Translations under genes and position numbers: made by a program | Notes under the pieces: generated by a model | The model's input: the letters and a program-made list of their open reading frames with translations, nothing else | The model's database searches: none | What the model was told of the DNA's origin: nothing | Source of the DNA: Candidatus Daviesbacteria bacterium | GTDB taxonomy: Bacteria > Patescibacteriota > Microgenomatia > Daviesbacterales > UBA10151 | Length of the DNA stretch: 64,000 nt | Direction of reading: 5' to 3' | Assembly (NCBI GenBank): GCA_016176335.1 | Contig: JACOXI010000003.1 | Span: forward strand, 113,104 to 177,103 | In this document: one piece after another, positions 1,938 through 48,995 of the stretch | How positions within the stretch are numbered: position 1 is the first letter of the stretch | How the letters are laid out: the number at the start of each line of letters is the position of its first letter

Positions 1938-1952
1938 GTTTTTTGAATCCTT

Positions 1953-2739: not shown

Positions 2740-2770
2740 GACAGTTGGAGTATATCACAAGTAGCTTAAG

Positions 2771-4507
2771 TTACTTGGTTTCCACATTAAACAATGGTCC
2801 CACTATTTGAATATTGGCAGGCGCTCTTTGGTTAAAGTAATTTTTAAAATCCGAACCTGAAAAAGTTATCCCGTTAATAGTAACTGAGGTCGTTCGTCCA
2901 CTTCCAAAATCAGCACTAACAGAAACTGAGGAAGCATTATCAATAGGAGTCCCTCCTCTTGATCTAAGTTCTTGTTTTACCCTATCAGAACTCCAGTTAT
3001 CCGTTAGGGGACAACCTTGTTTAGGATCAGGTGGAGGAGCTGGTTTATCAGGTTGGAAGACAAAACATCCTAAAGAGGAATCTTTTTGCATAAGCATGAT
3101 TACATTGGCAATATCTGCAACTTCATCTAACTTAAGCCAGGCAGATTTGGCATATTCATTTCTATACCCTTGTGCCGCATAAAAACAGGGAGAATCTTTA
3201 TCATAAGCTTTGGAAAACAGATCCCCAAAGTTGCCTACATCCCCACCTATATCCCTAATTCTTTTGGTGAAAGAAGTGCCGGATCCCCAAACATCAGCGG
3301 ATGAAAAAGTATACCCTCCGTCTGTGGAAGAATACCAGGCTTTAACCGCCGACCCACCCGATACCATGACTTTTCCGTTAGTTTCGTTGACAGCCCGCTC
3401 CCAGTTTCCTCCTTTGTTGCCGCCTTTGTAAACCTGACACTGTTGGGTGGTGCAAATCTCTCCTGACCCATTGTTGGTGTAAGCCAGGGCATAAGAGCGG
3501 GCAGCAGCGGCTTGAGCTTTTAAAGCCTCAATCGGCCAGGAATCAGGCATCTCGTAAATGCCCAAAAGATAGGTTTCTAAAGGTATAGAGCCGTATCCTT
3601 GGACAGAAATATTAATGTTTGGTCTTTGTTCAAAACTAAAATCTTGGAAATAAGCTCTTAAGATATCTTCATGGCTTTGTCCAGCTTGGGCTCTACCTAA
3701 AGCCCCATACTGGTTCATACCAACTCTGTGCGGGATACCGAAAGTAAAGAAGGCAAATGCCGGTCTAAAACCCGGGTCCAAATTCCGGTCATCAGTACAA
3801 AACAGGGGGCCTGCACCCAAAGAAGTAGGCAGATTTAAGGATGCCTGTCTTTGAGCAATGATGGCTTGTTGACGAGCAGTCAGTTGAGCAATTTTTGAGG
3901 ATAGCTCGGACTGGAAGGCTTTGGCTTTGCTTATCTCCCCTCCTAAAAATTTGGCATTTTTATCTACTTCTGCTTGCAGGATGGCCAACCTGGCTTTATC
4001 TTTTTCCAGTTTATCTTTTTGGGTCAACAGATCAATCACTTCTTGAGTTATTGAGGAAATAATTTGCCTGTCTTCTTTGGCAACTGTTTGGCGGTAGGAT
4101 AATTCTCTGAATAAATCACCGGCTTGAAAGGAAGAAAGAATGACAATTAAAGGGTCTGAAAGAAATGACCTGATGTAATAGGCCCTGACCCTCTCTTCCA
4201 AAAGAGCTTGCTGAAGAGCAATTTTATCTTCTCTGACATCTAACTCTTTTTGTTTAGTCTGAATATTGGCGGATAAAGTGTTTAAGCTTGCCTGGATTTG
4301 GGCCAGTTGTCTTTGTAAAGAAGAAAACTGTCCTTCCAAAGGCTTGGTGGCGGAAACAGACAGCTCTCTTTGCTTGTTTAAATCATTAATTTGTCTTTGT
4401 AAATCCTCTATCTCATCAGCATGGACAGTTGGTAGTAAGTAGTTAGTAGTAAGTAGTAAGGAAAAAAAGGTGAAGATAGCTATCAAAAACTTTTTGCCAG
4501 AAGACAT
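2771..4507 (-). CDS. SpoIID/LytB-domain protein with N-terminal signal/TM and long coiled-coil
   Basis: Matches the SpoIID/LytB amidase-enhancer family (VGMNQYGALGRA, AAAARSYALAYT, YSSTDGGYT). ATG at 4507; an alternative TTG start lies at 4537. Confidence 0.75.
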   Translation of the reverse strand: MSSGKKFLIAIFTFFSLLLTTNYLLPTVHADEIEDLQRQINDLNKQRELSVSATKPLEGQFSSLQRQLAQIQASLNTLSANIQTKQKELDVREDKIALQQALLEERVRAYYIRSFLSDPLIVILSSFQAGDLFRELSYRQTVAKEDRQIISSITQEVIDLLTQKDKLEKDKARLAILQAEVDKNAKFLGGEISKAKAFQSELSSKIAQLTARQQAIIAQRQASLNLPTSLGAGPLFCTDDRNLDPGFRPAFAFFTFGIPHRVGMNQYGALGRAQAGQSHEDILRAYFQDFSFEQRPNINISVQGYGSIPLETYLLGIYEMPDSWPIEALKAQAAAARSYALAYTNNGSGEICTTQQCQVYKGGNKGGNWERAVNETNGKVMVSGGSAVKAWYSSTDGGYTFSSADVWGSGTSFTKRIRDIGGDVGNFGDLFSKAYDKDSPCFYAAQGYRNEYAKSAWLKLDEVADIANVIMLMQKDSSLGCFVFQPDKPAPPPDPKQGCPLTDNWSSDRVKQELRSRGGTPIDNASSVSVSADFGSGRTTSVTINGITFSGSDFKNYFNQRAPANIQIVGPLFNVETK

Positions 4508-6617: not shown

Positions 6618-7018
6618 GAGAATTTAGAATTAAGCTTTTTTTGAATTATTTTTTTATAGCTTTATTCTTGATTCTTACAGCTTTATTCTTACCAATCCCT
6701 GCTTATGCTGCATCTCCTGCTCCCGGGGTAGATATTAAAGAGTATTTTGGTTTTGGAAATATTGGCTCTTTGGGGGAAGGGACTACCAGACTGGTGGAGC
6801 CGGCTTTTCAGTTAACAGCAGCAGTGGTGGTGATCTACTTTCTTTTGGGGGCATTTAAATACTTAAGGGCAGGTGGCAACAAAGAGGAACTGGAGGGTGC
6901 AAGGCAAATGATTATCCATGCCATTATTGGGTTTATAATACTCATGTTTGCTTTTTTGGTGTTACAGTTTATATTATCGAACTTGTTTAAAGTAACTGAT
7001 TTTCAGATAATAGGGTAA
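6614..7018 (+). CDS. VirB2/TrbC-like pilin paralogue 2
   Basis: 134 aa. Signal peptide, then GAFKYLRAGGNKEELEGARQMIIHAIIG. Overlaps the previous gene by 4 nt (operon). Confidence 0.6.
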   Translation: MREFRIKLFLNYFFIALFLILTALFLPIPAYAASPAPGVDIKEYFGFGNIGSLGEGTTRLVEPAFQLTAAVVVIYFLLGAFKYLRAGGNKEELEGARQMIIHAIIGFIILMFAFLVLQFILSNLFKVTDFQIIG

Positions 7019-7020
7019 TT

Positions 7021-7353
7021 ATGGATTTTTCAAAAAATTTCGGCTCTATTAGTCCCCCGCCTGCTATAAAAGATTTTATTGGCAGTGACCCAACAGGCGC
7101 AGGTGGAATTAGTCAGTTTTTAAGTAATCTTGTGACCCTGATTTATGGTTTAGCTGCCATAGTTTTGCTTTTTATGATCCTTTGGGGAGCTTTTGACTGG
7201 ATGACTTCCGGAGGGGAAAAAGAAAAGTTAGAATCTGCCAGAAATAAAATCATCAGTGCCATAATCGGCATCATGCTTTTTGCAGTGGCTTTTGCTATCA
7301 TCCAGGTTTTAGGCCAATTTACAGGATTTACATTTTTCGTCGGCCAAAAGTGA
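7021..7353 (+). CDS. VirB2/TrbC-like pilin paralogue 3
   Basis: 110 aa. WGAFDWMTSGGEKEKLESARNKIISAIIG. Confidence 0.6.
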   Translation: MDFSKNFGSISPPPAIKDFIGSDPTGAGGISQFLSNLVTLIYGLAAIVLLFMILWGAFDWMTSGGEKEKLESARNKIISAIIGIMLFAVAFAIIQVLGQFTGFTFFVGQK

Positions 7354-7410
7354 CCCTAATTCAACCAGCACTTGACAAGTAGTTTATACTTTGAATAAGA
7401 TTAAGACATT

Positions 7411-7785
7411 GTGAAAAAATTAGTTGTTTTATTATCAACCATTATTGCGCTTGTAGCCCCCAAGATAGCCTTTGCCGCTACTCCACCACCAGTTGTTGTT
7501 AGTCCTCCTCCTCAAGGATATCAGAATTTGGGAAATTTTATTACCCAAGCCATCACTTTGATTTTCGGGTTCGCCATTCTGGTAGTTTTGGTCATGCTGG
7601 TTTGGGGAGCATTTGAGTGGATTACCTCCGGAGGAGACAAGGAAGCTGTTGGCAAAGCCAGAAATAGAATTATTAATGCTTTGATAGGATTGGCTGTGTT
7701 GGCTGTGGCATATGCCCTGACAAAAGTGGCTGCAGATTTTGTAGGCATCAATCTTCTCAATATCACAATACCCGGACCGCCATAA
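7411..7785 (+). CDS. VirB2/TrbC-like pilin paralogue 4
   Basis: 124 aa, GTG start. Signal peptide AFAATPPP. WGAFEWITSGGDKEAVGKARNRIINALIG. Confidence 0.6.
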   Translation: MKKLVVLLSTIIALVAPKIAFAATPPPVVVSPPPQGYQNLGNFITQAITLIFGFAILVVLVMLVWGAFEWITSGGDKEAVGKARNRIINALIGLAVLAVAYALTKVAADFVGINLLNITIPGPP

Positions 7786-7830
7786 TTTTTCTATTTGATC
7801 TTTACAGCCTCTTAATGTTAACCTTAAAAT

Positions 7831-8145
7831 ATGGGTCCTGATGCAGCCGGATTAGATCAGATTGAGCAAGTTTTTACAAGTGTTATATCTGTGATGGTAG
7901 GTTTGGGGTTTGTGGCGCTTTTGGTACTTTTGGTTTTGGCCGGGTTCAAATACCTGACCTCCGGAGGAGAGCAAAAAGCTGTACAGCAGGCTCATCTAAC
8001 AGTTACCTGGGCGCTTTTGGGAATACTTTTTATGGCCATTGCCTGGCTGCTGCTGCAGCTTATTGAAAACTTTACCGGAATAAAAGTCACTACTTTTGAT
8101 ATTAAAAGTTTGTGTGAAGTTGGTGGCAAGCAATTTTGTAAGTGA
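7831..8145 (+). CDS. VirB2/TrbC-like pilin paralogue 5
   Basis: 104 aa. AGFKYLTSGGEQKAVQQAHLTVTWALLG. Confidence 0.55.
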   Translation: MGPDAAGLDQIEQVFTSVISVMVGLGFVALLVLLVLAGFKYLTSGGEQKAVQQAHLTVTWALLGILFMAIAWLLLQLIENFTGIKVTTFDIKSLCEVGGKQFCK

Positions 8146-8216
8146 ATTGTTCCAGCAAGAATTCACTTGACAGTTTAATTTAAAACAACTTAATCTTAAG
8201 TTAGGTAAAAAACCTC

Positions 8217-9529
8217 ATGAGGGAACACTGGCAACCAACCATAGAAGCTAATCGGCCACCAAACCAGCGTGATTTGCTCACACAACTACCCAGACCACTT
8301 CGAATAGTTTCTGCTGCTTTATCAGCAGCCATCAGTTTAGCACTGGCTGCCTGTGGGCCTACCCCTGCGCCTACCCCTAAACCTAGTCCTGAACAACCAG
8401 GATCATCGCCTGCTGTGGCAACTAAAGTTGAGACCCCCCCTCCGCAAGGATTCTGCCTTTGGATGGAGAGGTATATTTTACACAAGGAACTCATCCTTCA
8501 GACGGTTCTTCTACTGGTATCAAAAGTGGCATTGACTTGGCCCCCAAAAGAGTGGTCAATTGTGCCTTGGGAACTAAAGCTTTAGTAGAGGAGCAAGCCG
8601 CCCTCGCTACTGCCTCCGGCATACTCACAATTGTAGGAAACGAGAAAGATGCCAATGACCCAAATCACAGTATTGTGGAAATACAAGAGAGTGGCACTGG
8701 ATTACGGTTCGGGCTGATGCATTTGAGTCAATTACCCGACCATGTCCAAGTTGGCGGTAGGGTCTTAGCAGGAGCCCCTATTGGTAAATCTTCTTGTGAG
8801 GTCCCGAAAGGAGGCAAGACTACCGGAGTCCACCTACACCAGTATGTCAAAGATAAAACGGGTAAATATCTTCCTATTAATGGATTCACTTTTTCCGGGT
8901 GGAGAGTTGCGGGAGACACTATGACTAAGGGGAATGAAAAAAGAGTGGCAGATCAAAGACGCTGCGCCACTGATCAAGCCTGTGGCGGAATCAGGAATGA
9001 TTTAGGAACATTTTGGAGGAGTTCAAAGAGTGGTCTAGTAGACTCTGTGAAAGTCGATCCCCTACCCACAGTTACTCCTACAAGAATAGTCCCAAAATCG
9101 CCACCTCGGCAGGCAGAGTCTATCCCTACCACCCCATCCGCAGCAGCTAGGTTATTCATCCAAGCACTCGTTTCTGGGGACAGCAACAAAGCCCTGCAAT
9201 TGATGCCAGTTCCTGGTCAGGCTACATACAAAGCGGTTATGCTTGGCATTTCAGATGCACTTCGTGCATGTTCAGGGAGCGTCACTGAAGCGTCACACGG
9301 TCTTCGAAGTTACTATAATATTAGTTTTACTCCTTCATGTGGAACATTTGGCAGTTATTACGACGCGCTGCCGTCACATGATGTTGGTAATGTTAAGGCG
9401 GCATTCGCGTTGCTTGGACAAATCGACCCCTTGCGTAATCGACGTTTGGTTGGATGTACGGTAACAGTCATGTCAGTCAATGACCAATGGAGGATTATGT
9501 ACTTACCTACATGCCTACCGTCTCAATAA
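8217..9529 (+). pseudogene. Lipoprotein M23-family (LytM-like) peptidase, split by a +1/-1 frameshift at a C7 homopolymer (8434-8440)
   Basis: Frame 0 encodes a lipobox signal (ISLALAACG) and a Pro/Thr linker. Frame 2 opens at 8432 and encodes M23 motifs (GIDLA...GTKALV; GVHLHQY). The two frames meet exactly at a cccccccc tract. The segment looks GC-richer than its neighbours. Confidence 0.55.
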
Positions 9530-15790: not shown

Positions 15791-15884
15791 GTCAATCCTT
15801 CGACACTATGCTTCGGACTGATCTCCTTTCTAGATTGTTTATCGTAACGCCTTGCGGCTCTTCGTATATCGAATATCGCGGATT

Positions 15885-15930
15885 GCCGATAAACGATAAC
15901 CGATTAACGATAAACCATTAACCAATTACC
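15885..15930. repeat. R3 module CGATAAACGATAACCGATTAACGATAAACC (degenerate tandem 8-9-bp units) in upstream region of 1416-aa gene
   Basis: 29 of 31 nt identical to a segment inside tsaD (40402-40432). Related CGTATATCG / GTTTATCGT motifs flank the gene at 46768-47130. Confidence 0.55.
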
Positions 15931-16004: not shown

Positions 16005-16283
16005 CTACTTTTCTTCTTGGTATAACTGGTCGTGAGTTCCCAATAAGACAAAGTAAACAACAACAACTTCTCCTTCACTCTTCTCTGCATAAATTGCCCG
16101 CCAATTTGCAGTTATATCAATGCTTCGCAGTCCTTGGTATGGTTCTTTTAACAGGTGGTTATCTAATTCAAAGTCATTAGGGTTTCTGGAGAAAATCAAA
16201 ACTTTTTCCTTGAAGCTCTTGCGAACTCTCACATCTGCTTTTTTCAGAGTGCGTAAAAAGATAGGGGAATATCTGATGATCAT
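16005..16283 (-). CDS. yafQ: YafQ/RelE-family type II toxin (ribosome-dependent mRNA interferase)
   Basis: 92 aa. HLLKEPYQGLRSIDITANWRAIY...LLGTHDQLY parallels E. coli YafQ (HPLQGSWKGYRDAHVEPDWILIY...RTGTHAALF). Overlaps the upstream dinJ by 4 nt. Confidence 0.75.
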   Translation of the reverse strand: MIIRYSPIFLRTLKKADVRVRKSFKEKVLIFSRNPNDFELDNHLLKEPYQGLRSIDITANWRAIYAEKSEGEVVVVYFVLLGTHDQLYQEEK

Positions 16284-16564
16284 ATTCCCTGTTTTTCAAG
16301 CCAAGCAACCGCTTCCTCTCCGGTTTTAAATGCCGGGGATGTTCTGCCTGCCTTCCAATCTTTCTCTGCTTGGCGGATAGCGTTTTTTAAGTACTCGCTC
16401 GGTTCTTCATCTCTGGCGCTAAACTCCACAGACTTTGTCCTAATAAACTGTTTTAAGAATGCCTTAATGACAACAGATAAAGGCATGCCAAGCGCTTCAG
16501 CTGTGGCTTGGGCTTCTTTTTTAGTTTTGGGGTCAACTTTGGCAACAACTACTGCATAACTCAT
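16280..16564 (-). CDS. dinJ: DinJ/RelB-family antitoxin
   Basis: 94 aa. N-terminal ribbon-helix-helix region (MSYAVVVAKVDPKTKKEAQATAEALGMPLSVVIKAFLKQF) typical of DinJ. Forms an operon with the toxin. Confidence 0.75.
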   Translation of the reverse strand: MSYAVVVAKVDPKTKKEAQATAEALGMPLSVVIKAFLKQFIRTKSVEFSARDEEPSEYLKNAIRQAEKDWKAGRTSPAFKTGEEAVAWLEKQGI

Positions 16565-16607: not shown

Positions 16608-17963
16608 CTAAATTAACGTCCCATTGCATACATAACACTTTTCAGTGCAGTAATTTACCTCTCCACAACTGATACAGCTTTTACCTTTCTTGCCTGCTTC
16701 TCCTCCAAAAACACTGCTTATGCTTCTAACTATTCCTGAAATCAAATTGCCGATCTTACTGGCAATACCTCCAACTGAAAATCCTGCTGATAATCCGCAT
16801 CCTCCTGCAACTACCCTGACTGCCTGATAACCCAGCCAGTTAACCTTCTCTTCCAAAGTCTTAAAAATAGGCATGATTTTATTTACAATTTTAGATGTCA
16901 TGCTTACCACTTTATCTTTTATACCAACTAAACCCTCCCAAATATAATCTGCTCCATTCAAAACAGCATTTAGGGCAACTTTTACCTGCTCGGGTGCAAA
17001 AACTGATCCACATATTCTATCTACCAAACAATGTATAAGGTCTGAACTCCCCTGGGCAATTTTTTGAAAACCCTCTTCTTTTAAAGCATTTTTCCTTTGT
17101 ATTAAGATCTCACCGCTACTTTCAAAAATAGGATTAGCCAGCAACCACTGATCTTTTGACCCTACCCTTCCATTAAAATAATCCGGTCTTGAAGCGGTTA
17201 TCATCTCTTCTGCCTGCTCATAACTTAAGTCTGAGGCAAAACGAGTCATTTGAACTATTCTTCTTCGAGTAAATGGGTCTTCTAAAAGCTCGTAACGATC
17301 CAAGAAATTATCAGTGAATATAGTACCTTCTACTAAACCAGGCCCTGAGATAACTTCAACTTTTAAATCTACTGGGGCGTTTGGATCTGCAAAAGCTTTC
17401 TGTATTTTTACAATACCAACCTTCTCTTGTTCTATTCTTGGAACATCATGTGATCCCATTTGCCTGTAATATTCAATGCCAACTGTTAAAACGTCTTCAA
17501 AAGCTTGATTGGGTAAATCCCTACTTCTTAACTTGCCATCATCATCAATATCATAAATAACAATACTGGTGGCTACATGGTAGCGTTCTCTTAGAGCAGT
17601 TTCTATCTGCTTTATTTCATGAAGTTTAAACTGTTTTCTTTCTTCTTCGGTTTGCAGAGTCTCAAACATTGCTCTTTCTAAAACAGGATTATAATTTCTA
17701 ACAGGCCCTCTTGCTTTTGTTTCTAAACTTCCATCAAATTGATTTTGTAATCTTGCTACTCTTGCTAAATATTCTTCAGTATCGAGTTTTTGTGTGTTAG
17801 AAACCCCTGTAGGGGGTAAGATTCGCTCGATTGGTCGCGCAATAACTATTGTATTATTAAAAGGGGAAACCTGTTCTCGTCTACCTCCTACATCCGGTTG
17901 AATTAAAATATCTAACTGCTTAAGATTTGGGGGTGTTAAATGTTGAAGTGTCTCTACTGACAT
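16608..17963 (-). CDS. Hypothetical 451-aa protein with Gly-rich segment and C-terminal Cys4 zinc-ribbon-like tail (CISCGEVNYCTEKCYVCNG)
   Basis: Long ORF. SD-like AGGAG lies 4 nt upstream of the ATG. No recognisable enzymatic motif. Confidence 0.7.
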   Translation of the reverse strand: MSVETLQHLTPPNLKQLDILIQPDVGGRREQVSPFNNTIVIARPIERILPPTGVSNTQKLDTEEYLARVARLQNQFDGSLETKARGPVRNYNPVLERAMFETLQTEEERKQFKLHEIKQIETALRERYHVATSIVIYDIDDDGKLRSRDLPNQAFEDVLTVGIEYYRQMGSHDVPRIEQEKVGIVKIQKAFADPNAPVDLKVEVISGPGLVEGTIFTDNFLDRYELLEDPFTRRRIVQMTRFASDLSYEQAEEMITASRPDYFNGRVGSKDQWLLANPIFESSGEILIQRKNALKEEGFQKIAQGSSDLIHCLVDRICGSVFAPEQVKVALNAVLNGADYIWEGLVGIKDKVVSMTSKIVNKIMPIFKTLEEKVNWLGYQAVRVVAGGCGLSAGFSVGGIASKIGNLISGIVRSISSVFGGEAGKKGKSCISCGEVNYCTEKCYVCNGTLI

Positions 17964-17974
17964 ATTGCTCCTGC

Positions 17975-18060
17975 AACGGGACCCTTCGACTACGCTCAGG
18001 GTAAATTGTGGTCGGTCTCCTGGCTCTTCGACTCGCTTCGCTCGCTCAGAGCTATAGCTT
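17975..18060. repeat. R2 GC-rich motif cluster upstream of the 451-aa gene
   Basis: Minus-sense reads TCTGAGCGAGCGAAGCGAGTCGAAGAG ... CCCTGAGCGTAGTCGAAGGG, directly before the RBS and ATG. Confidence 0.55.
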
Positions 18061-18163
18061 ACCGAATCACAGTTGCGGCACAGCCCCGGACTTACACCGG
18101 GTTCCCTTTTTGTATCTTCTCCCGCTTAAAGGCGGCATGATACACCACGTTTTAAGAATAACA

Positions 18164-18262
18164 ACTCAAAACTCAAATGTCAAAACTCAAAATTACAAAT
18201 CAAATCTCAAAACTTTTTAGATTTAAGATGTAGATTTGCGATTTGAGATCTAAGATTGAGAT
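18164..18262 (+). repeat. Dispersed ~100-bp repeat R1, copy b
   Basis: CTCAAAACTCAAATGTCAAAACT ... GATGTAGATTTGCGATTTGAGATCTAA. Matches 15-118 and the reverse complement of 45630-45735. Lies about 80 nt upstream of the gene at 18341. Confidence 0.55.
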
Positions 18263-18340
18263 TAGTAGAGATTGTCCCATAATGATCCCTTTTGTGCTGC
18301 TTGCCATCATTTTTTTCACATTGTATACATTTAAGTAATT

Positions 18341-26343: not shown

Positions 26344-27660
26344 TTAATTTGTAATTCTGTTTTTTATCTCAATAAGCATCCGCTGTACTTCTCTGTCTGT
26401 GGCGACAAGTTTTTTTATCTTGTCCCTGCCGTGCATGACAGTGGTATGGTCCCTGCCGCCTAAAATTTGTCCGATTCTTTCAACAGTCATTTTAAGATGT
26501 TCGCTTAAGATAAACATGGTGATGTGTCTTGGTAAGACCAACTCTTTTTGTCTTTTGGAGCCGGCCAGTTCTTTTTGAGTCAGGTTGAAGTAACCGCATA
26601 CTGTTGCCAAGACCTGTTTAGAGTCAACCTTGGGGTTGTTTTTGGGGGGGCTTTGTAAATACCTGCCTATATTTTCTGTTGTAGGAGGTAAATTTTGAGT
26701 TTTTAACATCTGTAAAATCCCAACAAGTTTCCCCTCAAGCTCTCTGATATTGGTATCAAAAGATGAGGCTAAAAGCTGCAGGGCTTCTTCTTCCAAAATT
26801 ACTCCTTGTTCCAAGCATTTTGCCCGGAGAATTGCCACCCGGGTGTCAAAATCAGGTTGTTGTATATCAATCATTAAGCCTCCGGCAAAGCGTGATTTTA
26901 ATCTGTCTTCGATTTTTGCTATTTCGTTGGGAGATCTGTCAGATGTTAAAACTATCTGGGAGTTTTTGCCGATTAGTTCGTTAAATGTATGAAAAAACTC
27001 CTCCTGTGTTCCTTCTCTGCCTGAAAAGAATTGGATGTCATCTACCAACAGAACATCCGAAGAACGGTATTTTTTTCTTAAATCCCCCATTTTATGAGTT
27101 TGTATGGCCTCAACATAATCGTTCATAAATTTTTCAGAAGAGCAGTAAATAATTTTGCCATGAGGTTTCTTAGATAAAATTGCATTGCCGATACCAAGCA
27201 TAAGATGCGTTTTGCCAACACCGGTTCCGCCATAAATAAACAAAGGATTGTATGATGCTCCGGGGCTTGTGACAACTGCCAAAGCTGCGGCATATGCAAC
27301 ATTGTTGGAAGGCCCCACCACAAAATTTTCCAAGCTATATTTGGGGTTTAGGTAAGAAGTTTGCCTTTGTGCCGGCTGGAAAAAATCTTCATCGTTCGTT
27401 TCTGGTTGTTTATCAACCTCTTTTACAATAAACTCAACATTTATTTTTTTATCTAAAAGTTTTTCAAAAGTATCCGCAATAATTTCTTTATATTTTTGCT
27501 GCAGAGTTTCTTTTATAAAAGCTGAAGGCGTGCTTAAAATAATTTTGTCCCCCACATAACTTTTTACAGTGGTTTTTATAAAATAGGCCTTAAAATTATC
27601 AGCTCCTGCCAAGGGTTTGATAAGTTGTAAAAATTTATGCCAGAGCCTTAAATTATCCAT
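26344..27660 (-). CDS. dnaA: Chromosomal replication initiator DnaA
   Basis: 438 aa. AAA+ Walker A GGTGVGKTHLMLGIGNAI and Walker B LLVDDIQFFSG. C-terminal DNA-binding helix-turn-helix. Confidence 0.95.
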   Translation of the reverse strand: MDNLRLWHKFLQLIKPLAGADNFKAYFIKTTVKSYVGDKIILSTPSAFIKETLQQKYKEIIADTFEKLLDKKINVEFIVKEVDKQPETNDEDFFQPAQRQTSYLNPKYSLENFVVGPSNNVAYAAALAVVTSPGASYNPLFIYGGTGVGKTHLMLGIGNAILSKKPHGKIIYCSSEKFMNDYVEAIQTHKMGDLRKKYRSSDVLLVDDIQFFSGREGTQEEFFHTFNELIGKNSQIVLTSDRSPNEIAKIEDRLKSRFAGGLMIDIQQPDFDTRVAILRAKCLEQGVILEEEALQLLASSFDTNIRELEGKLVGILQMLKTQNLPPTTENIGRYLQSPPKNNPKVDSKQVLATVCGYFNLTQKELAGSKRQKELVLPRHITMFILSEHLKMTVERIGQILGGRDHTTVMHGRDKIKKLVATDREVQRMLIEIKNRITN

Positions 27661-27680
27661 GGTTCGGTAAACTCTTCACA

Positions 27681-27713
27681 TGTGTGGAAAACTTATCCAC
27701 AATTTAATCCACA
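27681..27713. promoter_or_regulatory. DnaA-box cluster upstream of dnaA (TTTTCCACA on minus strand, TTATCCACA, TAATCCACA)
   Basis: Consensus 9-mers at 27682-27690 (reverse complement), 27693-27701 and 27705-27713. Likely a dnaA autoregulation site or an alternative oriC half. Confidence 0.55.
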
Positions 27714-27815
27714 AAATAAAAAGAGGCAATATGCAGAAACTATTAAAAAGTAGATCAAAAATTTTTATTAGGAAAATATTGGATAAACCACTAAAGTCTG
27801 TTATAATTTTTCTTG

Positions 27816-30133: not shown

Positions 30134-30646
30134 ATGGAACAGCAACTATCTGAAGTTTTAGATAATATATTGGGGTTGTTACTTCTTGAGGGAAGTTATG
30201 AAATAGAGGAGACCGAAGACGGATTTATTGTTTCCATAGAAACACAAGATGCAGGGAGGCTGATTGGGGTCAGGGGGGAATCTTTAGATGCTCTCCAGTT
30301 AATTATTAACCAAATTATGTCCCGTGGTCAAAAGATCGGTGAGTTTAAAAGGATGATTTTGGATGTTTCCGGTTGGAGAAAGCAGAGGGAAGAAGATTTA
30401 AAAAGGAGTGCAGAGGATTGGGGTAAACAAGTTCTGGATTCAGGTAAGGAAATGGAGCTTGAGCCAATGAGTTCTTGGCAAAGAAGAGTTGTGCATATGG
30501 TGGTGGGTGAGATGAAAGGATTGGAGACTGAAAGTTTGGGAGAGGGTAGAGACAGACATGTGGTGATAAAACTCAAATCTCAAAATTCAAAACTCAAAAC
30601 TAAAAAAGAAGAGCCAAATACAGATGCTGAAACTAAAGAAGATTGA
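30134..30646 (+). CDS. jag: Jag/KhpB-like RNA-binding protein (KH + R3H domains)
   Basis: RLIGVRGESLDALQLII (KH motif) and a C-terminal R3H-like region (WQRRVVHMVVGEM). Conserved partner immediately downstream of yidC. Confidence 0.8.
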   Translation: MEQQLSEVLDNILGLLLLEGSYEIEETEDGFIVSIETQDAGRLIGVRGESLDALQLIINQIMSRGQKIGEFKRMILDVSGWRKQREEDLKRSAEDWGKQVLDSGKEMELEPMSSWQRRVVHMVVGEMKGLETESLGEGRDRHVVIKLKSQNSKLKTKKEEPNTDAETKED

Positions 30647-40258: not shown

Positions 40259-41500
40259 TCAGGCGAGCGCAAGACTGGGGTCTGCTTGTAATTTTAAGGG
40301 AGTAGCAATAGGTTTTTGACCCGCCTTGCCGCGAGGCAGGAAAAAAGCAGCTGCTGCTATCATGGCAGCGTTATCAGTGCAAAGATGTGGTGGAGGAACC
40401 GCCAGGTTTATCGTTAATCGTGAATCGTTTATCGTTTTTAGAAATTGTTCACGAAGCTTTTTATTAGAGGCAACGCCGCCGGCAATCATAATATTTTTTA
40501 CCTTATAAATTTTGGCAGCCTTTATGGTTTTGGCAACTAAAACATCAACAATGGCAGATTCAATGGAAGCGGCCAAGTTAGCCAGCTCGTCACGGCTGAA
40601 AAAACCGCTCGCGCGACCAGATCGCTCGCTTGGAGTTTGTTTCGTGCCAAGCTCTGGATTCGTGGTTTCGATAGTTTGTGGTGCGCTCAACTGCACTACA
40701 TTTTTTCTAGCTCGCGACTTCGCTGTCTTTTCGTGTTCGCTTAAAAAATTTGCTACGGATGTTTTGAGCCCGGAAAAGGAGAAGTCAAAGTCTTTAGAAT
40801 CTATCATGGGTCTAGGTAGATCAAAAGCTTTGGGATTTCCTTTTTGGGCAAGTTTGGAAATTTGGGGTCCGCCCGGATAAGACAGTCCCAGCAGGCGGGC
40901 GCATTTGTCAAAACACTCGCCAGCAGCATCATCTCTGGTGCCACCCAGGTATTTATATTTACCATGATCTGTGAAGAGTACCAAATCTGTATGCCCGCCG
41001 GAAACTAGTAAGCCTATGCAGGGAAAGGATGGTTTATCGGTTATCGTTAATCGTGAATCGTTTTTTTCTTCCGATATACGATATTCGATATCCGATTGAC
41101 TAATTTCGACCCAGTTTGCATAAAAGTGTCCAATAAGATGATTTACAGGAATTAGGGGTCTATTCCAAACAAGAGCCAGTGTTTTGGCTGTTTCCACTCC
41201 CACTAGAAGGGAGCCGATCAGCCCTGGACCATAGGTAACAGCTATAGCATCAATTGGCGGGTAGTTGGTAGTTGGTAGTTGGTAGTTGGGAAAGGCTTGA
41301 GTTAATGCCTCTTGTATCACTGGTATTATCGACCGCAACTGTTCTCTGGCTGCCTGTTCCGGAATGATCCCACCATATTTAGCTTGTAAGGAGGCCGAGG
41401 ATGCCACCACATTGGATAAAATTGTTATTCGATTATCGTTATTCGTCAACACAGCTGCTGCTGTTTCATCACAAGAAGTCTCAATACCCAAAATAATCAT
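40259..41500 (-). CDS. tsaD: tRNA N6-adenosine threonylcarbamoyltransferase TsaD (Kae1/Gcp family) with three short in-frame insertions
   Basis: MIILGIETSCDETAAAV start (ATG at 41500; the ORF extends to 41539) and conserved His/Asp metal ligands. Inserts NDSRLTI (x2) and NDNRITI are encoded by CGATAAACG-type repeat DNA. Confidence 0.85.
   Translation of the reverse strand: MIILGIETSCDETAAAVLTNNDNRITILSNVVASSASLQAKYGGIIPEQAAREQLRSIIPVIQEALTQAFPNYQLPTTNYPPIDAIAVTYGPGLIGSLLVGVETAKTLALVWNRPLIPVNHLIGHFYANWVEISQSDIEYRISEEKNDSRLTITDKPSFPCIGLLVSGGHTDLVLFTDHGKYKYLGGTRDDAAGECFDKCARLLGLSYPGGPQISKLAQKGNPKAFDLPRPMIDSKDFDFSFSGLKTSVANFLSEHEKTAKSRARKNVVQLSAPQTIETTNPELGTKQTPSERSGRASGFFSRDELANLAASIESAIVDVLVAKTIKAAKIYKVKNIMIAGGVASNKKLREQFLKTINDSRLTINLAVPPPHLCTDNAAMIAAAAFFLPRGKAGQKPIATPLKLQADPSLALA
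40400..40437. repeat. R3 module copy inside tsaD coding sequence (rc: CGATAAACGATTCACGATTAACGATAAACC)
   Basis: 29 of 31 nt identical to 15889-15919. Encodes TINDSRLTIN in the tsaD frame. Confidence 0.6.
41036..41072. repeat. R3 module copy (permuted) inside tsaD coding sequence (rc: AACGATTCACGATTAACGATAACCGATAAACC)
   Basis: Encodes KNDSRLTITDKP. A weaker third copy lies at 41428-41450 (NNDNRITI). Confidence 0.55.
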
Positions 41501-41539
41501 TTGTGGTATTGTAGCAAATTTGGGTGTAGAATTTGACAA

Positions 41540-45619: not shown

Positions 45620-45629
45620 ATCTTCAATC

Positions 45630-45735
45630 TTAAATGTTAGATCTCAAATCGCAAATCTACATCTAAAATCTCAAATGTTTTAAAAGTTTTAAGATTTGAG
45701 TTATAGTTTTGACATTTGACATTTGAGTTTTGAGA
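45630..45735 (-). repeat. Dispersed ~100-bp repeat R1, copy c (reverse orientation), immediately upstream of ahcY
   Basis: The reverse complement matches 18164-18262 over about 90 nt, including CTCAAAACTCAAATGTCAAA and GATGTAGATTTGCGATTTGAGATCTAA. Confidence 0.55.
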
Positions 45736-45738
45736 TAC

Positions 45739-46707
45739 CTATAGATTAAGTTCTCCTCCAAAATTCTCTTTGTATCTTTCACAGAACTCTTGGATTGTGA
45801 AGGTGTGATTACTTGTACCATATTTTTCTATAGCGTAACAAGCAGCAACTGATCCCATTTGTCCGCAAGTTTTTAAATTTAAACCCCTACTGTATCCTGC
45901 TAAAAATCCAGCCCGGTAAGCATCTCCTGCGCCTGTTGGGTCAACAACCCCCGTGTCATTGCGAGGAGCCGCAGGCGACGTGGCAATCTTTTCGTCTTTA
46001 GTTTCTATAACTGATCCTTTTTCTCCTAAGGTTGTAATTACAACTTGCGCATTTTCCAACAGATTTGACATCTGACATTTGCCGCCCCTGGCGAGCCTCG
46101 CCTCTGGCGGGAGTTTTGACATTAATAACTCTATTTCATAATCATTACCTATTAAAATAGTTGCTCCATTTATCATGCTTTTTAACTCTTCTGTATTTAG
46201 CGTAGGAAGTTGCATGCCCGGATCCAGCATGTAGGGGATTTTTGCATCTTGGCATTCTTTTGTGAACTTAACCATAGATTTTGGATCATTTGGAGAAATG
46301 ACTACTAAAGTGGGATTACCCTCTAAAGAAAGTTGGGAATTTTTAGTCATGGCCCCAGGATAAAAAGCTGAAATCTGGTTATCAGATGAATCAGTCATAA
46401 TATAGGCAGAAGAGGTGGTTTCACCCTCAAGAATTTTTATTTTAGAAATATCCACTCCAGCATTTTTCAAAAAATTACCATATTCTGCAAAATCAGATCC
46501 AGCTGCACCTAATATAGACACAGGAGACTGTAAAAGCGCTAGATTATAGGCAATATTGCCGGCTGTGCCACCTTTTTGTTTTTGTAAAGTGTTTACCAAA
46601 AAGGAGAGGTTAATTTGATGGATTTTATCAGGCATGATGTGATCTGAAAACTTGCCTGGAAAATCCATAATATGATCAAAAGCCAAAGAACCAGTTACAG
46701 TAATCAT
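45739..46707 (-). CDS. PfkB-family carbohydrate/nucleoside kinase (ribokinase-like)
   Basis: 322 aa. N-terminal GG motif region and C-terminal DPTGAGDAYRAGFLAG anion-hole motif, as in ribokinase/adenosine kinase. Confidence 0.8.
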   Translation of the reverse strand: MITVTGSLAFDHIMDFPGKFSDHIMPDKIHQINLSFLVNTLQKQKGGTAGNIAYNLALLQSPVSILGAAGSDFAEYGNFLKNAGVDISKIKILEGETTSSAYIMTDSSDNQISAFYPGAMTKNSQLSLEGNPTLVVISPNDPKSMVKFTKECQDAKIPYMLDPGMQLPTLNTEELKSMINGATILIGNDYEIELLMSKLPPEARLARGGKCQMSNLLENAQVVITTLGEKGSVIETKDEKIATSPAAPRNDTGVVDPTGAGDAYRAGFLAGYSRGLNLKTCGQMGSVAACYAIEKYGTSNHTFTIQEFCERYKENFGGELNL

Positions 46708-46716
46708 TTCAAATCT

Positions 46717-46765
46717 AGTATATCGTATATGGTTTATCGTATATCGTAAAGAGCAAATAAATTCT
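46717..46765. repeat. R3-type AT-rich motif block (TATCGTATATGGTTTATCGTATATCG ... TTATCGTTTATCGG) flanking four-helix-bundle gene (left)
   Basis: Shares the 13-mer GTTTATCGTATAT with the right flank (47136-47148). Confidence 0.5.
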
Positions 46766-46767
46766 AC

Positions 46768-47130
46768 TTATCGTTTATCGGATTTCAAGAATTTCTTGTA
46801 AGAACGTATTTTACGGATTATCTTTTCAGCCGCCTCATAGAGTTGATTCCTGACTGATTTATCTAAATAATTTAATTCAAGTGCTATCTGGATTTCAGAA
46901 GTAGTTTCCAGTGCAGACTTAACTGCAATATCCAAATAATGCATTTTATCAGTAACGCTGCTGGCTCCTGAGCCTTCGGCAATATTTGCTGAAATAGATA
47001 CAGCTGCACGTCTAAGTTGATTAGTCAGACCATAAATTTCAGATCTGGGGAATTTATCAGTTACTTTGTAGATGGTGCGAGCATACTCTATGGCAAGTTT
47101 CCAAATATCAAGCGATTCGTAGGTAAACAT
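46768..47130 (-). CDS. Four-helix-bundle protein (23S rRNA intervening-sequence protein family, TIGR02436-like)
   Basis: MFTYESLDIWKLAIEYARTIYKVTDKFPRSEIYGLTNQLRRAAVSISANIAEGSG matches the family core. ATG at 47130 (the ORF runs to 47325 and overlaps the vanW-like gene). Confidence 0.75.
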   Translation of the reverse strand: MFTYESLDIWKLAIEYARTIYKVTDKFPRSEIYGLTNQLRRAAVSISANIAEGSGASSVTDKMHYLDIAVKSALETTSEIQIALELNYLDKSVRNQLYEAAEKIIRKIRSYKKFLKSDKR

Positions 47131-47134
47131 ATTT

Positions 47135-47190
47135 AGTTTATCGTATATTGAATAAACGATATACGAAGAACGAAGTGTTACGATAAACGA
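47135..47190. repeat. R3-type motif block flanking four-helix-bundle gene (right): GTTTATCGTATAT + 8-bp inverted repeat TCGTATAT/ATATACGA + ACGATAAACGA
   Basis: Direct repeat of the left-flank 13-mer, plus an internal palindrome. Seen directly in sequence. Confidence 0.5.
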
Positions 47191-47192
47191 AT

Positions 47193-48995
47193 TTACTCCT
47201 TTGTCCCTACCAAGTATACAGCTTGCCAGGGTTTGTAGGAAGAGTTCCAAGTTTCTTTTATTAAAACTTGCCCATCTCTTGTGACAGTTCTTGTAAAAGA
47301 GACCTTTGCCCCCCAAGCTGCCCAATCTACTTGTTTTACAGTGCCTTTTGGCAAAGTGGGATCATCCTGCCTTAGTTCCGGAGGCGGAGGAGTTTGATCG
47401 GCAACCACAGATTTGGAGATGGCGGCGATTCTGCCGTCGGATGTACCATATAAATCAACATAAAGGGTAGCTCCTTCGGTGTATGCCTGGATTAAGATGT
47501 GAGCTGGGGTATCATTTTGGAACTGAAAATCAACTGATGGATAAAAAACAGTGGCATCCAAACCAGGGGGAAAACCCTGTTCATAATAGCCAACTCGGTA
47601 AGTATGGGCTGTTCTTTTTACAACAGGTAATCCGGCATTTAAAACTGCCCGGAAAAGAGTGGTGGAATCCTGACAAACCCCGCCCCCGTCATCCAAAACA
47701 GTTCTGCCTTCTTTGATGACATAGGCCTGTTTAAAGCCGGTGGCAGCTGTGATGTCACCCACTGTTTGATTAAAAGAAAAGATTTCACCCGGAGGAACTA
47801 AGACCCCGTTAATTTTTTGGGCAGTGAGGTTAATATTATAGATTCTGTTGGGAATTGATCCGGCAAAATTGGAGATACCCTGGCCGATCAATTCCTTGAT
47901 CCCCAAGGAATTGACATCTGAGGTTTGAATCTTGGGTTTGATAATTACAACAGGCAAAACAATTGTTTTTGAAGAAGGCGAGGTCAGTGCTTCTGTAATT
48001 AAGTTGTAAGTTTTTTCTATATCAAGCTTTTGCCCTTCTTGTGAGGGCCTGAAAGTAATGACTCTTTTGGTTTTGGGATTAAATTCGAATAAGCCTTCTT
48101 GAACTTCCTGGTCTATTTCTTTGGCAATCTTGCTTATATAAGTTTTGGTTTTCCCCTGGTCCAAAAGCAAGTCCCCGCCGCTTGTTAAATCCAAAAGAGC
48201 AAGCAGTTGTTTTGTATCTAAAAAATATGAAGTTTTTTCAAAAGTAAGTCTGATTGGTTGTTTTTGGGTTTGTTCAAGTGCCTGTTTTGCTCTTTTGACG
48301 TGTTCTGTGGTGATTTTTGGTGGGACAACTTTTGTGGGCAGCAAAGATTGGTATTTGCCAAAAAGCAGATAATCTGCAATGGCTTTTTCAACTGATAATC
48401 TATCTAAGCTTAGGCCATCTTTTCCTTCTTTGATTTGAATACGGGCTGAAGGACTGCCTTCTGTGTTGGGGCTTTCATCAAAAAGCAGTTGGGCATCAGT
48501 ATATGGTTTATCAACAATCTTGGCAATTTGCTCAAGTTGAGATTCCAAAGACATGTTAACTGTCAGTAAGATTTGTTGAGGGTAAAAAAGGGTAGAAAAT
48601 TGCCTTAAAATCTTATCCCAAACAAAACCTGCTTGCTGCTTTGCCAAACTTTGATCAAGTAAAGAGTAATCAATTCTGGCAGAAGAGGTGGCGAGGTCTA
48701 TGGTGAATGATTGGTTCTGGTAAACAAAAGCTAGTTTTTGGGCAGATCTTTGCTGGAGGCTGCTTTCCACCTGTCTTATGGCTTGACCTTGAGTGAGGAA
48801 TGAGATATTGGAAGAACCAATATATGTCAGAGGATAGAACTTATCTGTTATGAAGGCTGAATATAAAAAAATGAGTAAAAGTAACAAAATTATCGACAGA
48901 ACAGAAGGTAAACTGTTTTTTTTAAAAAAGACCACTGTTTTTTTAAAGGGATTGCTTTTAATTTTTTCCTTTTTCGAAGATTTTTCTTTGGCCAC
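47193..48995 (-). CDS. VanW-family protein with N-terminal TM anchor
   Basis: Signature GGGVCQDSTTLFRAV (VanW GGGVCQxSTTLY) and a preceding PG-binding-like region. 600 aa. Confidence 0.75.
   Translation of the reverse strand: MAKEKSSKKEKIKSNPFKKTVVFFKKNSLPSVLSIILLLLLIFLYSAFITDKFYPLTYIGSSNISFLTQGQAIRQVESSLQQRSAQKLAFVYQNQSFTIDLATSSARIDYSLLDQSLAKQQAGFVWDKILRQFSTLFYPQQILLTVNMSLESQLEQIAKIVDKPYTDAQLLFDESPNTEGSPSARIQIKEGKDGLSLDRLSVEKAIADYLLFGKYQSLLPTKVVPPKITTEHVKRAKQALEQTQKQPIRLTFEKTSYFLDTKQLLALLDLTSGGDLLLDQGKTKTYISKIAKEIDQEVQEGLFEFNPKTKRVITFRPSQEGQKLDIEKTYNLITEALTSPSSKTIVLPVVIIKPKIQTSDVNSLGIKELIGQGISNFAGSIPNRIYNINLTAQKINGVLVPPGEIFSFNQTVGDITAATGFKQAYVIKEGRTVLDDGGGVCQDSTTLFRAVLNAGLPVVKRTAHTYRVGYYEQGFPPGLDATVFYPSVDFQFQNDTPAHILIQAYTEGATLYVDLYGTSDGRIAAISKSVVADQTPPPPELRQDDPTLPKGTVKQVDWAAWGAKVSFTRTVTRDGQVLIKETWNSSYKPWQAVYLVGTKE

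Follow-up and report, generated by a model that had tools for sequence, protein, structure and literature searches.

The 4HB gene and its flanking arrays

The window analysed here, a single stretch of 64 kb, carries a small four-helix-bundle (4HB) protein gene between a vanW gene and a pfkB gene. A first-pass annotation of this DNA had described a TIGR02436-like gene of 121 aa in a 480-bp gap between a kinase gene and a vanW-like gene. The family and the location were right; the protein has 120 aa, and the gap measures 485 bp (46708-47192). The 4HB gene and its two flanks, here called the cassette, occupy the whole gap. The gene is the sole ORF in these 485 bp, and no transposase or recombinase was found in or next to the cassette. 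Its neighbours are housekeeping genes. The features of the locus, in the direction of the genes, are:

47193..48995, minus strand: VanW / PG_binding_4 / G5 protein gene, the upstream neighbour
47131..47192, minus strand: 5' flank of the cassette, between the vanW stop and the ATG of the 4HB gene, with heptamer units in both orientations
47156..47188, minus strand: outer (5') arm, with inverted repeats I2, I4, I12 and I16, paired in the MFE and centroid predictions
47133..47149: ATG-proximal array with the right 13-mer copy (47136-47148), an alternative pairing partner of the outer arm
46768..47130, minus strand: 4HB protein gene, 120 aa plus stop, ATG at 47130 and stop at 46768-46770
46761..46788, minus strand: promoter-like TTGAAA-16-TAGAAT facing pfkB and spanning the end of the 4HB ORF, a consensus match only
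46708..46767, minus strand: 3' flank of the cassette, between the stop of the 4HB gene and the ATG of pfkB
46718..46748: 3' arm with the left 13-mer copy (46732-46744), GTATATC x4.4 on the plus strand (TRF)
45739..46707, minus strand: PfkB-family (nucleoside/ribo-)kinase gene, the downstream neighbour (PF00294, 4.1e-44)

The 4HB protein exceeds the curated cutoffs of both PF05635 (112.1 bits, 1.8e-32, cutoff 33.8, profile positions 1-105 of 106) and TIGR02436 (106.7 bits, 6.8e-31, cutoff 24). A phmmer search of PDB matched 2gsc (XCC0516; E = 5.3e-19, residues 4-98) and 2rld (E = 9e-5), and this homology relates the protein, at the level of sequence, to solved pentameric four-helix-bundle structures. 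PF05635 is a widespread family of small proteins, which a description of 2024 still called functionally uncharacterized. The last codons of the gene, S-D-K-R-stop (46769-46786), are themselves the heptamer units CGATAAA CGATAAG.

The 64 kb contain exactly two copies of the 13-mer GTTTATCGTATAT, at 46732-46744 and 47136-47148. None of 100 dinucleotide-preserving shuffles contained a match, and none is expected by chance. The repeat on both sides of the gene had been recognised before, with its left coordinate off by one. The results showed that the 13-mer consists of two units of a tandem repeat with period 7 (GTWTATC), which takes up both flanks of the cassette. Near-copies with at most two mismatches number 15 in the window against 1.1 expected, and they cluster at 15864-15915, 40406-40439 and 41032-41086 as well as in both 4HB flanks. 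The first-pass annotation had named a common genomic word as the finding that would tell against it, and the 13-mer proved to be one in the qualified sense that it belongs, as a unit, to a family of dispersed heptamer repeats.

The array ATATACGATAAAC (gene strand) is present at two places, immediately before the ATG and again beyond the stop codon, and this gives rise to the 13-bp direct repeat. An array complementary to it sits at the outer 5' end of the cassette, and the flank arrays are partly inverted. The 5' flank is palindromic in itself, which produces the direct repeat across the ORF. The 8-bp palindrome reported on the right flank, TCGTATAT (47141-47148) with ATATACGA (47159-47166), is present, but it lies within an imperfect hairpin of greater length (47133-47149 / 47151-47167), whose arms of 17 nt show 82% complementarity.

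When the whole cassette was folded as RNA, a stem of about 23 bp was predicted between 47156-47188 and 46718-46747, closing around the ORF in both the MFE and the centroid structure. The fold is modestly better than that of shuffled sequences (z = -1.8; 5 of 100 shuffles fold equally well). Alone, the 5' flank forms a local hairpin (-10.2 kcal/mol, z = -2.9) and the 3' flank is unstructured (z = +0.7). Mismatches in the arms were G-U in 62 cases and A-C in 44 (p = 0.10), so that pairing at the RNA level and at the DNA level are not distinguished by this count.

Both flanks contain conserved sequence. Blocks ATCGTAAC and TTCGTATATCG recur in the 5' flank of the four genomes compared. In the 3' flank, TCTTTACGATATACGATAAACCATATACGATATAC is invariant at 33 of 35 positions across four genomes whose synonymous sites are saturated, and this array is more strongly conserved than the 4HB ORF. 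Such very high conservation suggests a sequence-specific role of the 3' array, for example as a promoter or a protein site, and speaks against pairing as its only function. The promoter-like TTGAAA-16-TAGAAT was the top match of a promoter scan, agreeing with the consensus at 10 of 12 positions.

Occupied, empty and relic junctions

The same cassette lies at the same junction in at least five genomes (the window, L005, L012, L085 and L087). Four related Daviesbacteria genomes have empty vanW-pfkB junctions. The vanW stop and the pfkB ATG overlap in L006 (GAATGA), the genes abut in L008 (TAAATG), and short gaps of about 50 bp and about 18 bp separate them in L009 and L018. The empty site that had been proposed as a check of the first-pass annotation was thus found, and the gene is an insertion relative to these four genomes. 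Two further genomes, L011 and L079, retain relics with only the 3' end of the ORF and/or the arrays; the ORF-less relic in L011 keeps TTGAAA-17-GATAAT. The presence of the cassette among related genomes is therefore sporadic, as it is for intervening sequences (IVSs). The NJ tree was star-like and the occupied genomes were not monophyletic. On the strength of the relics, we favour one gain followed by several losses.

The direct repeat had earlier been read as a sign of recent insertion or of target-site duplication. The four empty junctions contain neither the 13-mer nor any heptamer unit, which shows that the array sequence belongs to the insert and does not duplicate its target. Nor is the insertion recent, since the cassette is shared by at least five genomes and its synonymous sites are as saturated as those of pfkB (pS = 0.65-0.82 for the 4HB gene and 0.68-0.72 for pfkB). 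The dN/dS of the 4HB gene against its orthologues was 0.04-0.11 where measurable. The saturated synonymous sites and the low dN/dS indicate that the insertion is old and that the protein is under selection. Protein identity was 81-88% for the 4HB protein and about 70% for its neighbours. Recent horizontal transfer was considered as the cause of this higher conservation and was rejected, because the synonymous sites are equally saturated. For the metagenome scan, the four-protein 4HB alignment was used; a divergent 11-protein alignment had no conserved stretches. Contigs of the organism studied here are present in SRR4343435, SRR4343428, SRR4343430 and SRR12113430.

Heptamer arrays at other 4HB genes and elsewhere in the window

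A tally was made of 48 4HB cassettes from CPR bacteria, Cyanobacteriota, Bacteroidota and Alphaproteobacteria, all of which carry PF05635 genes. A period-7 array was found on at least one side in 38 of the 48. In 33 cassettes the similarity of the two flanks exceeded the 99th percentile of shuffles, and 15 had no flank similarity at this strict threshold. Inverted similarity exceeded direct similarity in 34; direct arrays only were seen in nine, for example in Pseudanabaena, with (AAAGCTA)n, and Oscillatoria. The 4HB genes of Nostoc and Aulosira have AGGAGTC / GACTCCT arrays on their flanks. Commonly, the arrays border directly on the start codon of the 4HB gene and extend over its stop codon. 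Such cassettes were also seen in tRNA clusters, CRISPR-cas operons and housekeeping operons.

The flanks of one cassette also pair with each other better than expected. The mean flank-to-flank duplex energy of 35 cassettes was -28.6 kcal/mol, compared with -21.8 for mismatched pairs (p = 2e-4) and -19.6 for shuffles (p = 4e-8). Because high-GC genomes confounded a comparison against every gene of every locus, a within-locus control of 33 4HB genes against 196 other genes was used in its place. Here the median duplex energy was -28.3 against -17.6 (p = 1.7e-7), ungapped complementarity of at least 11 occurred in 39% of 4HB genes and 3% of the others, and the period-7 signal differed at p ~1e-10. 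Co-orientation with the neighbours was 80% for 4HB genes and 72% for other genes, which is not significant.

The first-pass annotation had also connected 4HB genes with rRNA intervening sequences. This connection is borne out by a bona fide IVS in the 23S rRNA of Azospirillum, which contains a PF05635-like ORF between 36-nt arms that are 86% complementary, each of them a period-7 array. Taken together, the 48 cassettes in four phyla and this true rRNA IVS indicate that 4HB genes and heptamer repeats are physically coupled. No paper linking heptamer repeats to the 4HB gene family was found in the literature searched.

Seven is also by a wide margin the commonest tandem period in the window, with 13 segments against 0-4 for every other period from 4 to 12. 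The heptamer elements outside the cassette include:

15838..15930: ORF-less GTTTATC/GATAAAC element, similar to a fusion of the cassette's 5' flank and a 3'-type array
40406..40437: GTTTATC x4.6 array of the cassette's heptamer family, inside the tsaD reading frame
41032..41096: GTTAATC x4.4, then inverted CGATATA x3.6, of the cassette's heptamer family, inside tsaD
45622..45738: palindrome lacking an ORF, built from units of a second family (CTCAAAA / TTTGAGA), between pfkB and AHCY, the gene for adenosylhomocysteinase

The first of these folds as RNA at -30.9 kcal/mol (z = -3.9), and the third encodes an insert not present in Thermotoga TsaD. Six related genomes have a tight pfkB-AHCY junction of 0-5 bp. 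The only match to a known RNA family (Rfam, E <= 1) was a chance miRNA-like one, on the palindrome at this junction.

Heptanucleotide repeats of the STRR type have been catalogued since about 1990, and we know of no accepted role for them. The arrays might be a general intergenic feature, comparable to STRRs or the TAACTGA repeats of Beggiatoaceae and possibly active in translation or termination, and the 4HB gene an ordinary gene that merely adjoins them. About a dozen other sites in the window do carry period-7 arrays without a 4HB gene, some within coding sequence (in frame in tsaD), and ORF-less heptamer palindromes are themselves insertion-polymorphic at the pfkB|AHCY junction. Like the window, genomes with heterocystous cyanobacterial STRRs or TAACTGA repeats (Beggiatoaceae, Cyanobacteria, Bacteroidetes) contain dispersed 7-nt arrays, mostly intergenic, of several families each. 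Heptamer repeats directly before start codons are known from other phyla, and there, as here, the arrays often end at the start codon (PMC4679880). However, the present host is a CPR bacterium, closest to Candidatus Daviesbacteria / Microgenomates, and not a heterocyst-forming cyanobacterium; its units GTWTATC and CTCAAAA are not canonical STRR units, and its arrays form matched pairs around one gene family. The difference between 4HB genes and the 196 other genes of the same loci, in flank complementarity and period-7 signal alike (p from 1e-7 to 1e-10), speaks against a general feature. The flanks of each 4HB gene match each other and not those of other 4HB genes, and the same association is seen in four phyla and within an rRNA gene. 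We consider it unlikely that the gene is a bystander.

The cassette compared with intervening sequences and mobile elements

In known IVSs, an ORF lies between terminal inverted repeats, which form a 28-bp stem cut by RNase III (PMC4990558). The cassette shares its ORF family with the rRNA IVSs that encode an S23p/4HB protein (Coxiella, Leptospira, Xanthomonas and Azospirillum lipoferum AZO_p2, our L121). In both, terminal inverted repeats of about 25-36 nt enclose a loop that is taken up almost entirely by the ORF, and presence among relatives is sporadic (PMC4990558). The arms of the cassette are period-7 arrays, as in the Azospirillum IVS, and the predicted stem would give it the complementary ends and the enclosing helix of an IVS. 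Unlike rRNA IVSs, which sit in a 23S or 16S rRNA helix, the cassette lies between two protein-coding genes, vanW and pfkB, and Rfam found no rRNA within the 64-kb window. Its ORF is under strong purifying selection, whereas that of the Coxiella IVS is reported as decaying and untranslated (PMC4990558). A further difference is that its 5' flank is palindromic and yields a direct repeat across the ORF.

Because the same anatomy recurs among 48 4HB genes, an rRNA IVS included, we read the locus as an IVS-type cassette in an mRNA operon instead of an rRNA. The 13-bp repeat belongs to the 7-base arrays that flank most of these genes, and the cassette is therefore taken as old and not as the footprint of a transposon. 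In this study, we believe, with a probability of about 0.7, that the 485-bp region is an IVS-type cassette, an old insertion between vanW and pfkB in which a strongly conserved, functional 4HB gene (PF05635, Avd-like) is held within heptamer arrays.

A course of events can be proposed for its RNA. The cassette would be transcribed together with its neighbours. The outer 5' arm (47156-47188) would then pair with the 3' arm (46718-46747), which would place the ORF in the loop of a long stem. By analogy with rRNA IVSs, we infer that this stem may be a substrate of RNase III-type processing, which would insulate the insert from the flanking RNAs. The ATG-proximal 13-mer copy could form an alternative local hairpin, and the 3' end of the cassette may provide a promoter-like signal for pfkB.

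The arms may instead act on DNA, RNA pairing being incidental. The cassette and its ORF-less relatives would then be non-autonomous mobile elements (MITE- or REP/BIME-like), with hairpin arrays that are recognised by a recombinase encoded elsewhere or moved by recombination between dispersed arrays. REP/BIME elements and MITEs are likewise short, dispersed, palindromic and intergenic, with insertion polymorphism at gene junctions. An ORF-less palindromic array of the cassette's own family lies elsewhere (15838-15930), different ones have inserted at tight gene junctions in relatives, and the L011 and L079 relics resemble deletions between arrays. The G-U excess is not significant, and some cassettes have direct instead of inverted arrays. 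However, the arms are tandem heptamer arrays and not a fixed palindrome, a conserved ORF is present in many copies, and no RAYT, other transposase or recombinase was seen in or beside the cassette, nor any target duplication at the junctions. The arms of the rRNA IVS must work as RNA, and arrays that abut start codons or overlap stop codons fit a role at that level. We regard a purely DNA-level element as quite improbable.

The 4HB protein is homologous to Avd, the accessory protein of diversity-generating retroelements (DGRs; PMC10053308), of which bAvd (PDB 4DWL) is a similar small four-helix bundle. CPR relatives carry real DGRs, and one in L005 has its own Avd between pfkB and AHCY. The match of the 4HB protein to NF033474 is weak, at 20.9 bits against a cutoff of 80, and a jackhmmer search seeded with the L005 DGR reverse transcriptase found no such enzyme in the 64-kb window. 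No template/variable repeats were noticed near the gene. The neighbours here are housekeeping genes, and the Avd of L005 is only distantly paralogous and has no heptamer arms. It is very doubtful that the gene is the Avd of a DGR.

The exact 13-bp repeat, not expected by chance, and the patchy presence of the gene in relatives would suit a target-site duplication or similar footprint of recent transposition, but this is hardly credible, being already refuted by empty sites without the 13-mer, for an insert that reaches precisely from the vanW stop to the pfkB ATG, contains no transposase in its 485 bp, bears tandem-array units with near-copies at three other loci, and has the same flank arrays in genomes with saturated synonymous sites. 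An integron attC cassette was also considered, on account of the 7-bp core. The attC core follows GTTRRRY. The candidate was rejected: the units do not fit this pattern, tandem arrays stand on both sides, and no integrase adjoins.

Returning to the IVS-type cassette, 4HB genes and heptamer arrays could belong to one widespread system that comprises rRNA IVSs, stand-alone cassettes in tRNA and mRNA operons, and ORF-less palindromes including STRR-type arrays. The Avd-like protein would act on the arrays, by binding RNA or DNA or by recruiting a reverse transcriptase or recombinase, and so maintain or spread them. We put this forward as a speculative possibility. If genes and repeats are coupled, IVSs are one setting among others for a broader type of cassette, and the repeats offer a concrete handle for experiments on the 4HB protein. 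Annotation pipelines could then recognise the cassettes and their ORF-less remnants, which are currently annotated as hypothetical genes or low-complexity protein inserts.

Anatomy of the cassette

The 485-bp gap between a PfkB-family kinase gene and a vanW gene was filled by a four-helix-bundle (4HB) gene, and all three genes lie on the minus strand. Together with its flanks, this gene forms the cassette (46708-47192):

45739-46707, minus, PfkB-family kinase gene (pfkB)
46718-46748, 7-nt units GTATATC GTATATG GTTTATC GTATATC, plus-strand reading (TRF period 7, 4.4 copies)
46768-47130, minus, 4HB gene, 120 aa, matching PF05635 (23S_rRNA_IVP) and TIGR02436
47136-47149, two more 7-nt units, oriented as in 46718-46748
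47152-47191, oppositely oriented 7-nt units (GATAAAC, GATATAC)
47193-48995, minus, VanW/PG_binding_4/G5 gene (vanW)

The 4HB protein scored 112 bits against PF05635 (cutoff 33.8) and 107 bits against TIGR02436 (cutoff 24), and it matched XCC0516 (PDB 2gsc), a solved pentameric four-helix-bundle protein (E = 5e-19). The first-pass annotation had described a repeat-bracketed gene of 121 aa; the gene and its bracketing stand, and the length is 120 aa. The 13-bp direct repeat GTTTATCGTATAT is real, its left copy shifted by one base. Exactly two copies occurred in 64 kb (46732-46744 and 47136-47148), and no shuffle contained a match. The 8-bp palindrome noted beside it (47141-47148/47159-47166) is also real and belongs to a 17-nt hairpin.

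Both flanks are built of 7-nt units, and the 13-mer is two adjacent heptamer units, nothing more. That it is a common genomic word holds in a qualified sense, since it belongs to a dispersed heptamer-repeat family: exact copies number two, and 15 near-copies (at most 2 mismatches) were found in the window against 1.1 expected. These clustered in the intergenic stretch 15864-15915, inside the tsaD frame (40406-40439 and 41032-41086) and around the 4HB gene. Tandem period 7 was detected in 13 segments of the window, compared with 0-4 for every other period from 4 to 12.

Insertion, age and selection at the vanW/pfkB junction

The nearest genomes were those of Candidatus Daviesbacteria / Microgenomates (PfkB identity up to 72%), and the order vanW-pfkB-AHCY (adenosylhomocysteinase) was kept in 15 related genomes. 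The junction was empty in four loci: in L006 the stop of vanW and the ATG of pfkB overlap (GAATGA), L008 reads TAAATG, and L009 and L018 have short gaps. None of the four contained the 13-mer or any heptamer unit. The same cassette occupied the junction in L005 and L012 (4HB proteins 81% and 88% identical) and in L085 and L087, two metagenome contigs. L011 and L079 carry relics: the former keeps just the last ORF codons and arrays, the latter a degenerate array alone. Other inserts, 2-5 kb of variable accessory ORFs, were present in L007, L010, L013, L015 and L016; by sequence appearance, some of these ORFs are nucleotidyltransferase-, PIN- or HTH-like. The junction appears to be a general hot spot for insertions.

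The proposed comparison with empty sites in relatives shows that the cassette is an insertion relative to them, placed exactly between the vanW stop and the pfkB ATG. The 13-mer had been taken to suggest a target-site duplication, which is contradicted by its absence from the four empty junctions; no duplicated target bases were seen in the comparison with relatives. The recent insertion proposed with it fails as well. Among the window, L012 and L005, synonymous sites were saturated in the 4HB gene (proportion of differences 0.60-0.77) and in pfkB (0.68-0.72), and dN/dS of the 4HB gene, where measurable, was 0.04-0.11. The 4HB gene is thus not recent, nor is it decaying; strong purifying selection acts on its protein. 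In four genomes, the non-coding 3' flank TCTTTACGATATACGATAAACCATATACGATATAC was invariant at 33 of 35 positions, a conservation exceeding that of the ORF. Selection acts on the 3' array as well as on the protein. Because the neighbour-joining tree of VanW, PfkB and AHCY was star-like, the occupied genomes did not group as a clade and relics exist, these sequences favour an old gain of the cassette followed by several losses.

The same anatomy in other phyla and in a true rRNA intervening sequence

Profile searches of all fetched loci detected a single 4HB gene in the window and about 40 in other loci. Most have one heptamer array that ends at the start codon or close to it and another, related one that begins at or overlaps the stop codon, with a unit that varies by lineage (GCTTATC, TAGCAAA, TTAGGGC, AAGATAA and others). 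The flank-to-flank duplex energy averaged -28.6 kcal/mol, compared with -21.8 for mismatched pairs (p = 2e-4) and -19.6 for shuffles (p = 4e-8). Against 196 other genes of the same loci, the 4HB genes differed in median duplex energy (-28.3 vs -17.6, p = 1.7e-7) and in period-7 signal (p ~1e-10). Annotated plasmids, taken as an independent sample, gave the same pattern in cyanobacteria (Nostoc, Aulosira, Picosynechococcus, Stanieria, Anabaena, Leptolyngbya, Geminocystis) and Bacteroidota (Riemerella). Of 48 cassettes, 38 had a period-7 array in one or both flanks. In 33, similarity between the flanks exceeded the 99th percentile of shuffles; it was solely inverted in 21, solely direct in 9 and of both kinds in 3. 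Inverted similarity exceeded direct similarity in 34/48. Exceptions are Pseudanabaena and Oscillatoria, with direct arrays, and the 15 cassettes under the strict threshold. The Pseudanabaena gene is embedded in a long direct array, (AAAGCTA)n / (AAAGCCA)n.

The genomic settings differed. Of 21 metagenome loci, 12 had the 4HB gene within a co-oriented tRNA cluster; cassettes so placed include those of L094, L096-L099, L102-L106 and L108. Examples are the tRNA-Met/tRNA-Val and tRNA-Pro/tRNA-Arg intervals and a position just upstream of tRNA-Trp. Several cyanobacterial copies were inside CRISPR-cas operons (plasmids L116, L123, L125): between cmr2 and cmr3 in Picosynechococcus, between cas6 and cas4 in Pseudanabaena, and upstream of cas4 in Anabaena sp. 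90. In the pfkB-centred loci (L005-L084), all ten stand-alone 4HB genes, from several lineages and with differing arm sequences, were directly beside pfkB or AHCY (P ~1e-5 under a uniform-junction model; ~1.5e-4 with at least seven independent events).

The suggested link to rRNA intervening sequences (IVSs) was borne out by the Azospirillum lipoferum AZO_p2 plasmid (L121), whose match falls within a 23S rRNA gene (1286-4484 by the Rfam LSU model). Its ORF (~2489-2851) stands between 36-nt arms, 86% complementary, each a period-7 array (CAGAGGA CGGATGA CAGAGGA CGGAGGA / TCCGTCC TCTGTCT TCTGTCA TCCGTCT). IVSs are described as an S23p ORF enclosed by terminal inverted repeats whose stem of ~28 bp is cut by RNase III, and they are sporadic in distribution (PMC4990558). 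In CPR bacteria the 4HB domain is found in 16S and 23S insertions too, and as late as 2024 it was termed functionally uncharacterized (PMC11270868). The window cassette matched IVSs in all anatomical features except residence in rRNA. Heptamer repeats are known in cyanobacteria (STRR). They are also known in Beggiatoaceae and Bacteroidetes (PMC4679880). A full-text search of incomplete coverage found no paper tying them to four-helix-bundle genes or IVS arms; an IVS-type cassette that lies outside rRNA and has arms made of heptamer arrays seems to be new. PF05635 is homologous to Avd, the accessory protein of diversity-generating retroelements (DGRs) (PMC10053308); the window protein scored below the cutoff of the Avd model, and a jackhmmer search with the DGR RT of L005 found no RT in the window.

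Predicted folding and heptamer elements elsewhere

In the predicted fold of the whole-cassette RNA (minus, 47192 to 46708), the outer 5' arm (47156-47188) pairs with the 3' array (46718-46747). The closing stem of ~23 bp, with the ORF in its loop, appeared in MFE and centroid structures alike, with a z-score of only -1.8. On its own, the 5' flank folded into a local hairpin (z = -2.9); the 3' flank, also folded alone, was unstructured. Because the arm pairs differently in these two folds, the model makes the two 13-mer copies alternative partners of one complementary arm, which may work as a switch. We believe that the cassette would be co-transcribed with its neighbours, which abut in the empty state, and that the closing stem would form in its RNA and, as in IVSs, may undergo RNase III-type processing. 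Co-orientation of 4HB genes with their neighbours was not above background. G-U and A-C mismatches in the arms numbered 62 and 44 (p = 0.10), which does not separate RNA-level from DNA-level pairing. The 3' end might also act as a promoter: of the promoter-like sequences in this region, the best match, by consensus only, was TTGAAA-16-TAGAAT (46788-46761, minus), which spans the ORF stop and faces pfkB, and the L011 relic keeps TTGAAA-17-GATAAT.

Heptamer arrays also occur away from the cassette:

40259-41539, minus, tsaD, 426 aa (~330 aa in solved homologues)
40406-40437, 41032-41096, 41257-41292 and ~41420-41450, in-frame heptamer tandem arrays in tsaD
15838-15930, ORF-less GTTTATC/GATAAAC-family element downstream of a relBE/yafQ-like toxin-antitoxin pair (16005-16564)
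45622-45738 and 18160-18272, ORF-less palindromes of a second heptamer family, CTCAAAA/TTTGAGA
26-106 and 30568-30606, further sites of the second family

Arrays of the cassette's family are tolerated in frame inside tsaD. The one at 41032-41096 encodes a 17-aa stretch, made up of YRISEEKNDSRLTITD and, past an aligned KP, SF, which is gapped against Thermotoga TsaD; GGTAGTT x4.3 encodes PNYQLPTTNYPP, and residues 272-319 form a further 48-aa insert. The element at 15838-15930 looks like a fusion of the cassette 5' flank with a 3'-type array, and its predicted fold is good (z = -3.9). The two palindromes are homologous (~110 bp each), and that at 45622-45738 sits at the pfkB/AHCY junction, which measures just 0-5 bp in six related genomes and holds different heptamer palindromes in L006 and L079. 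In L005 the same junction carries a complete DGR (6943-8800):

6943-7932, minus, RT
~7980-8315, Avd-like 4HB
~8326-8428, template repeat
~8694-8796, variable repeat

The two repeats differ from each other at T positions of the strand given here, corresponding to A in its complement. In L100, a DGR-type RT adjoins two 4HB genes.

A cobalamin riboswitch (17993-18164, minus; Rfam RF00174, 62 bits) directly abuts the 18160-18272 palindrome and lies upstream of an unannotated 451-aa ORF (16608-17963). The window also contains dnaA (26344-27720; Pfam Bac_DnaA 1.6e-66), with TTATCCACA-type DnaA boxes just upstream (~27690-27715), and this neighbourhood is probably the replication origin region.
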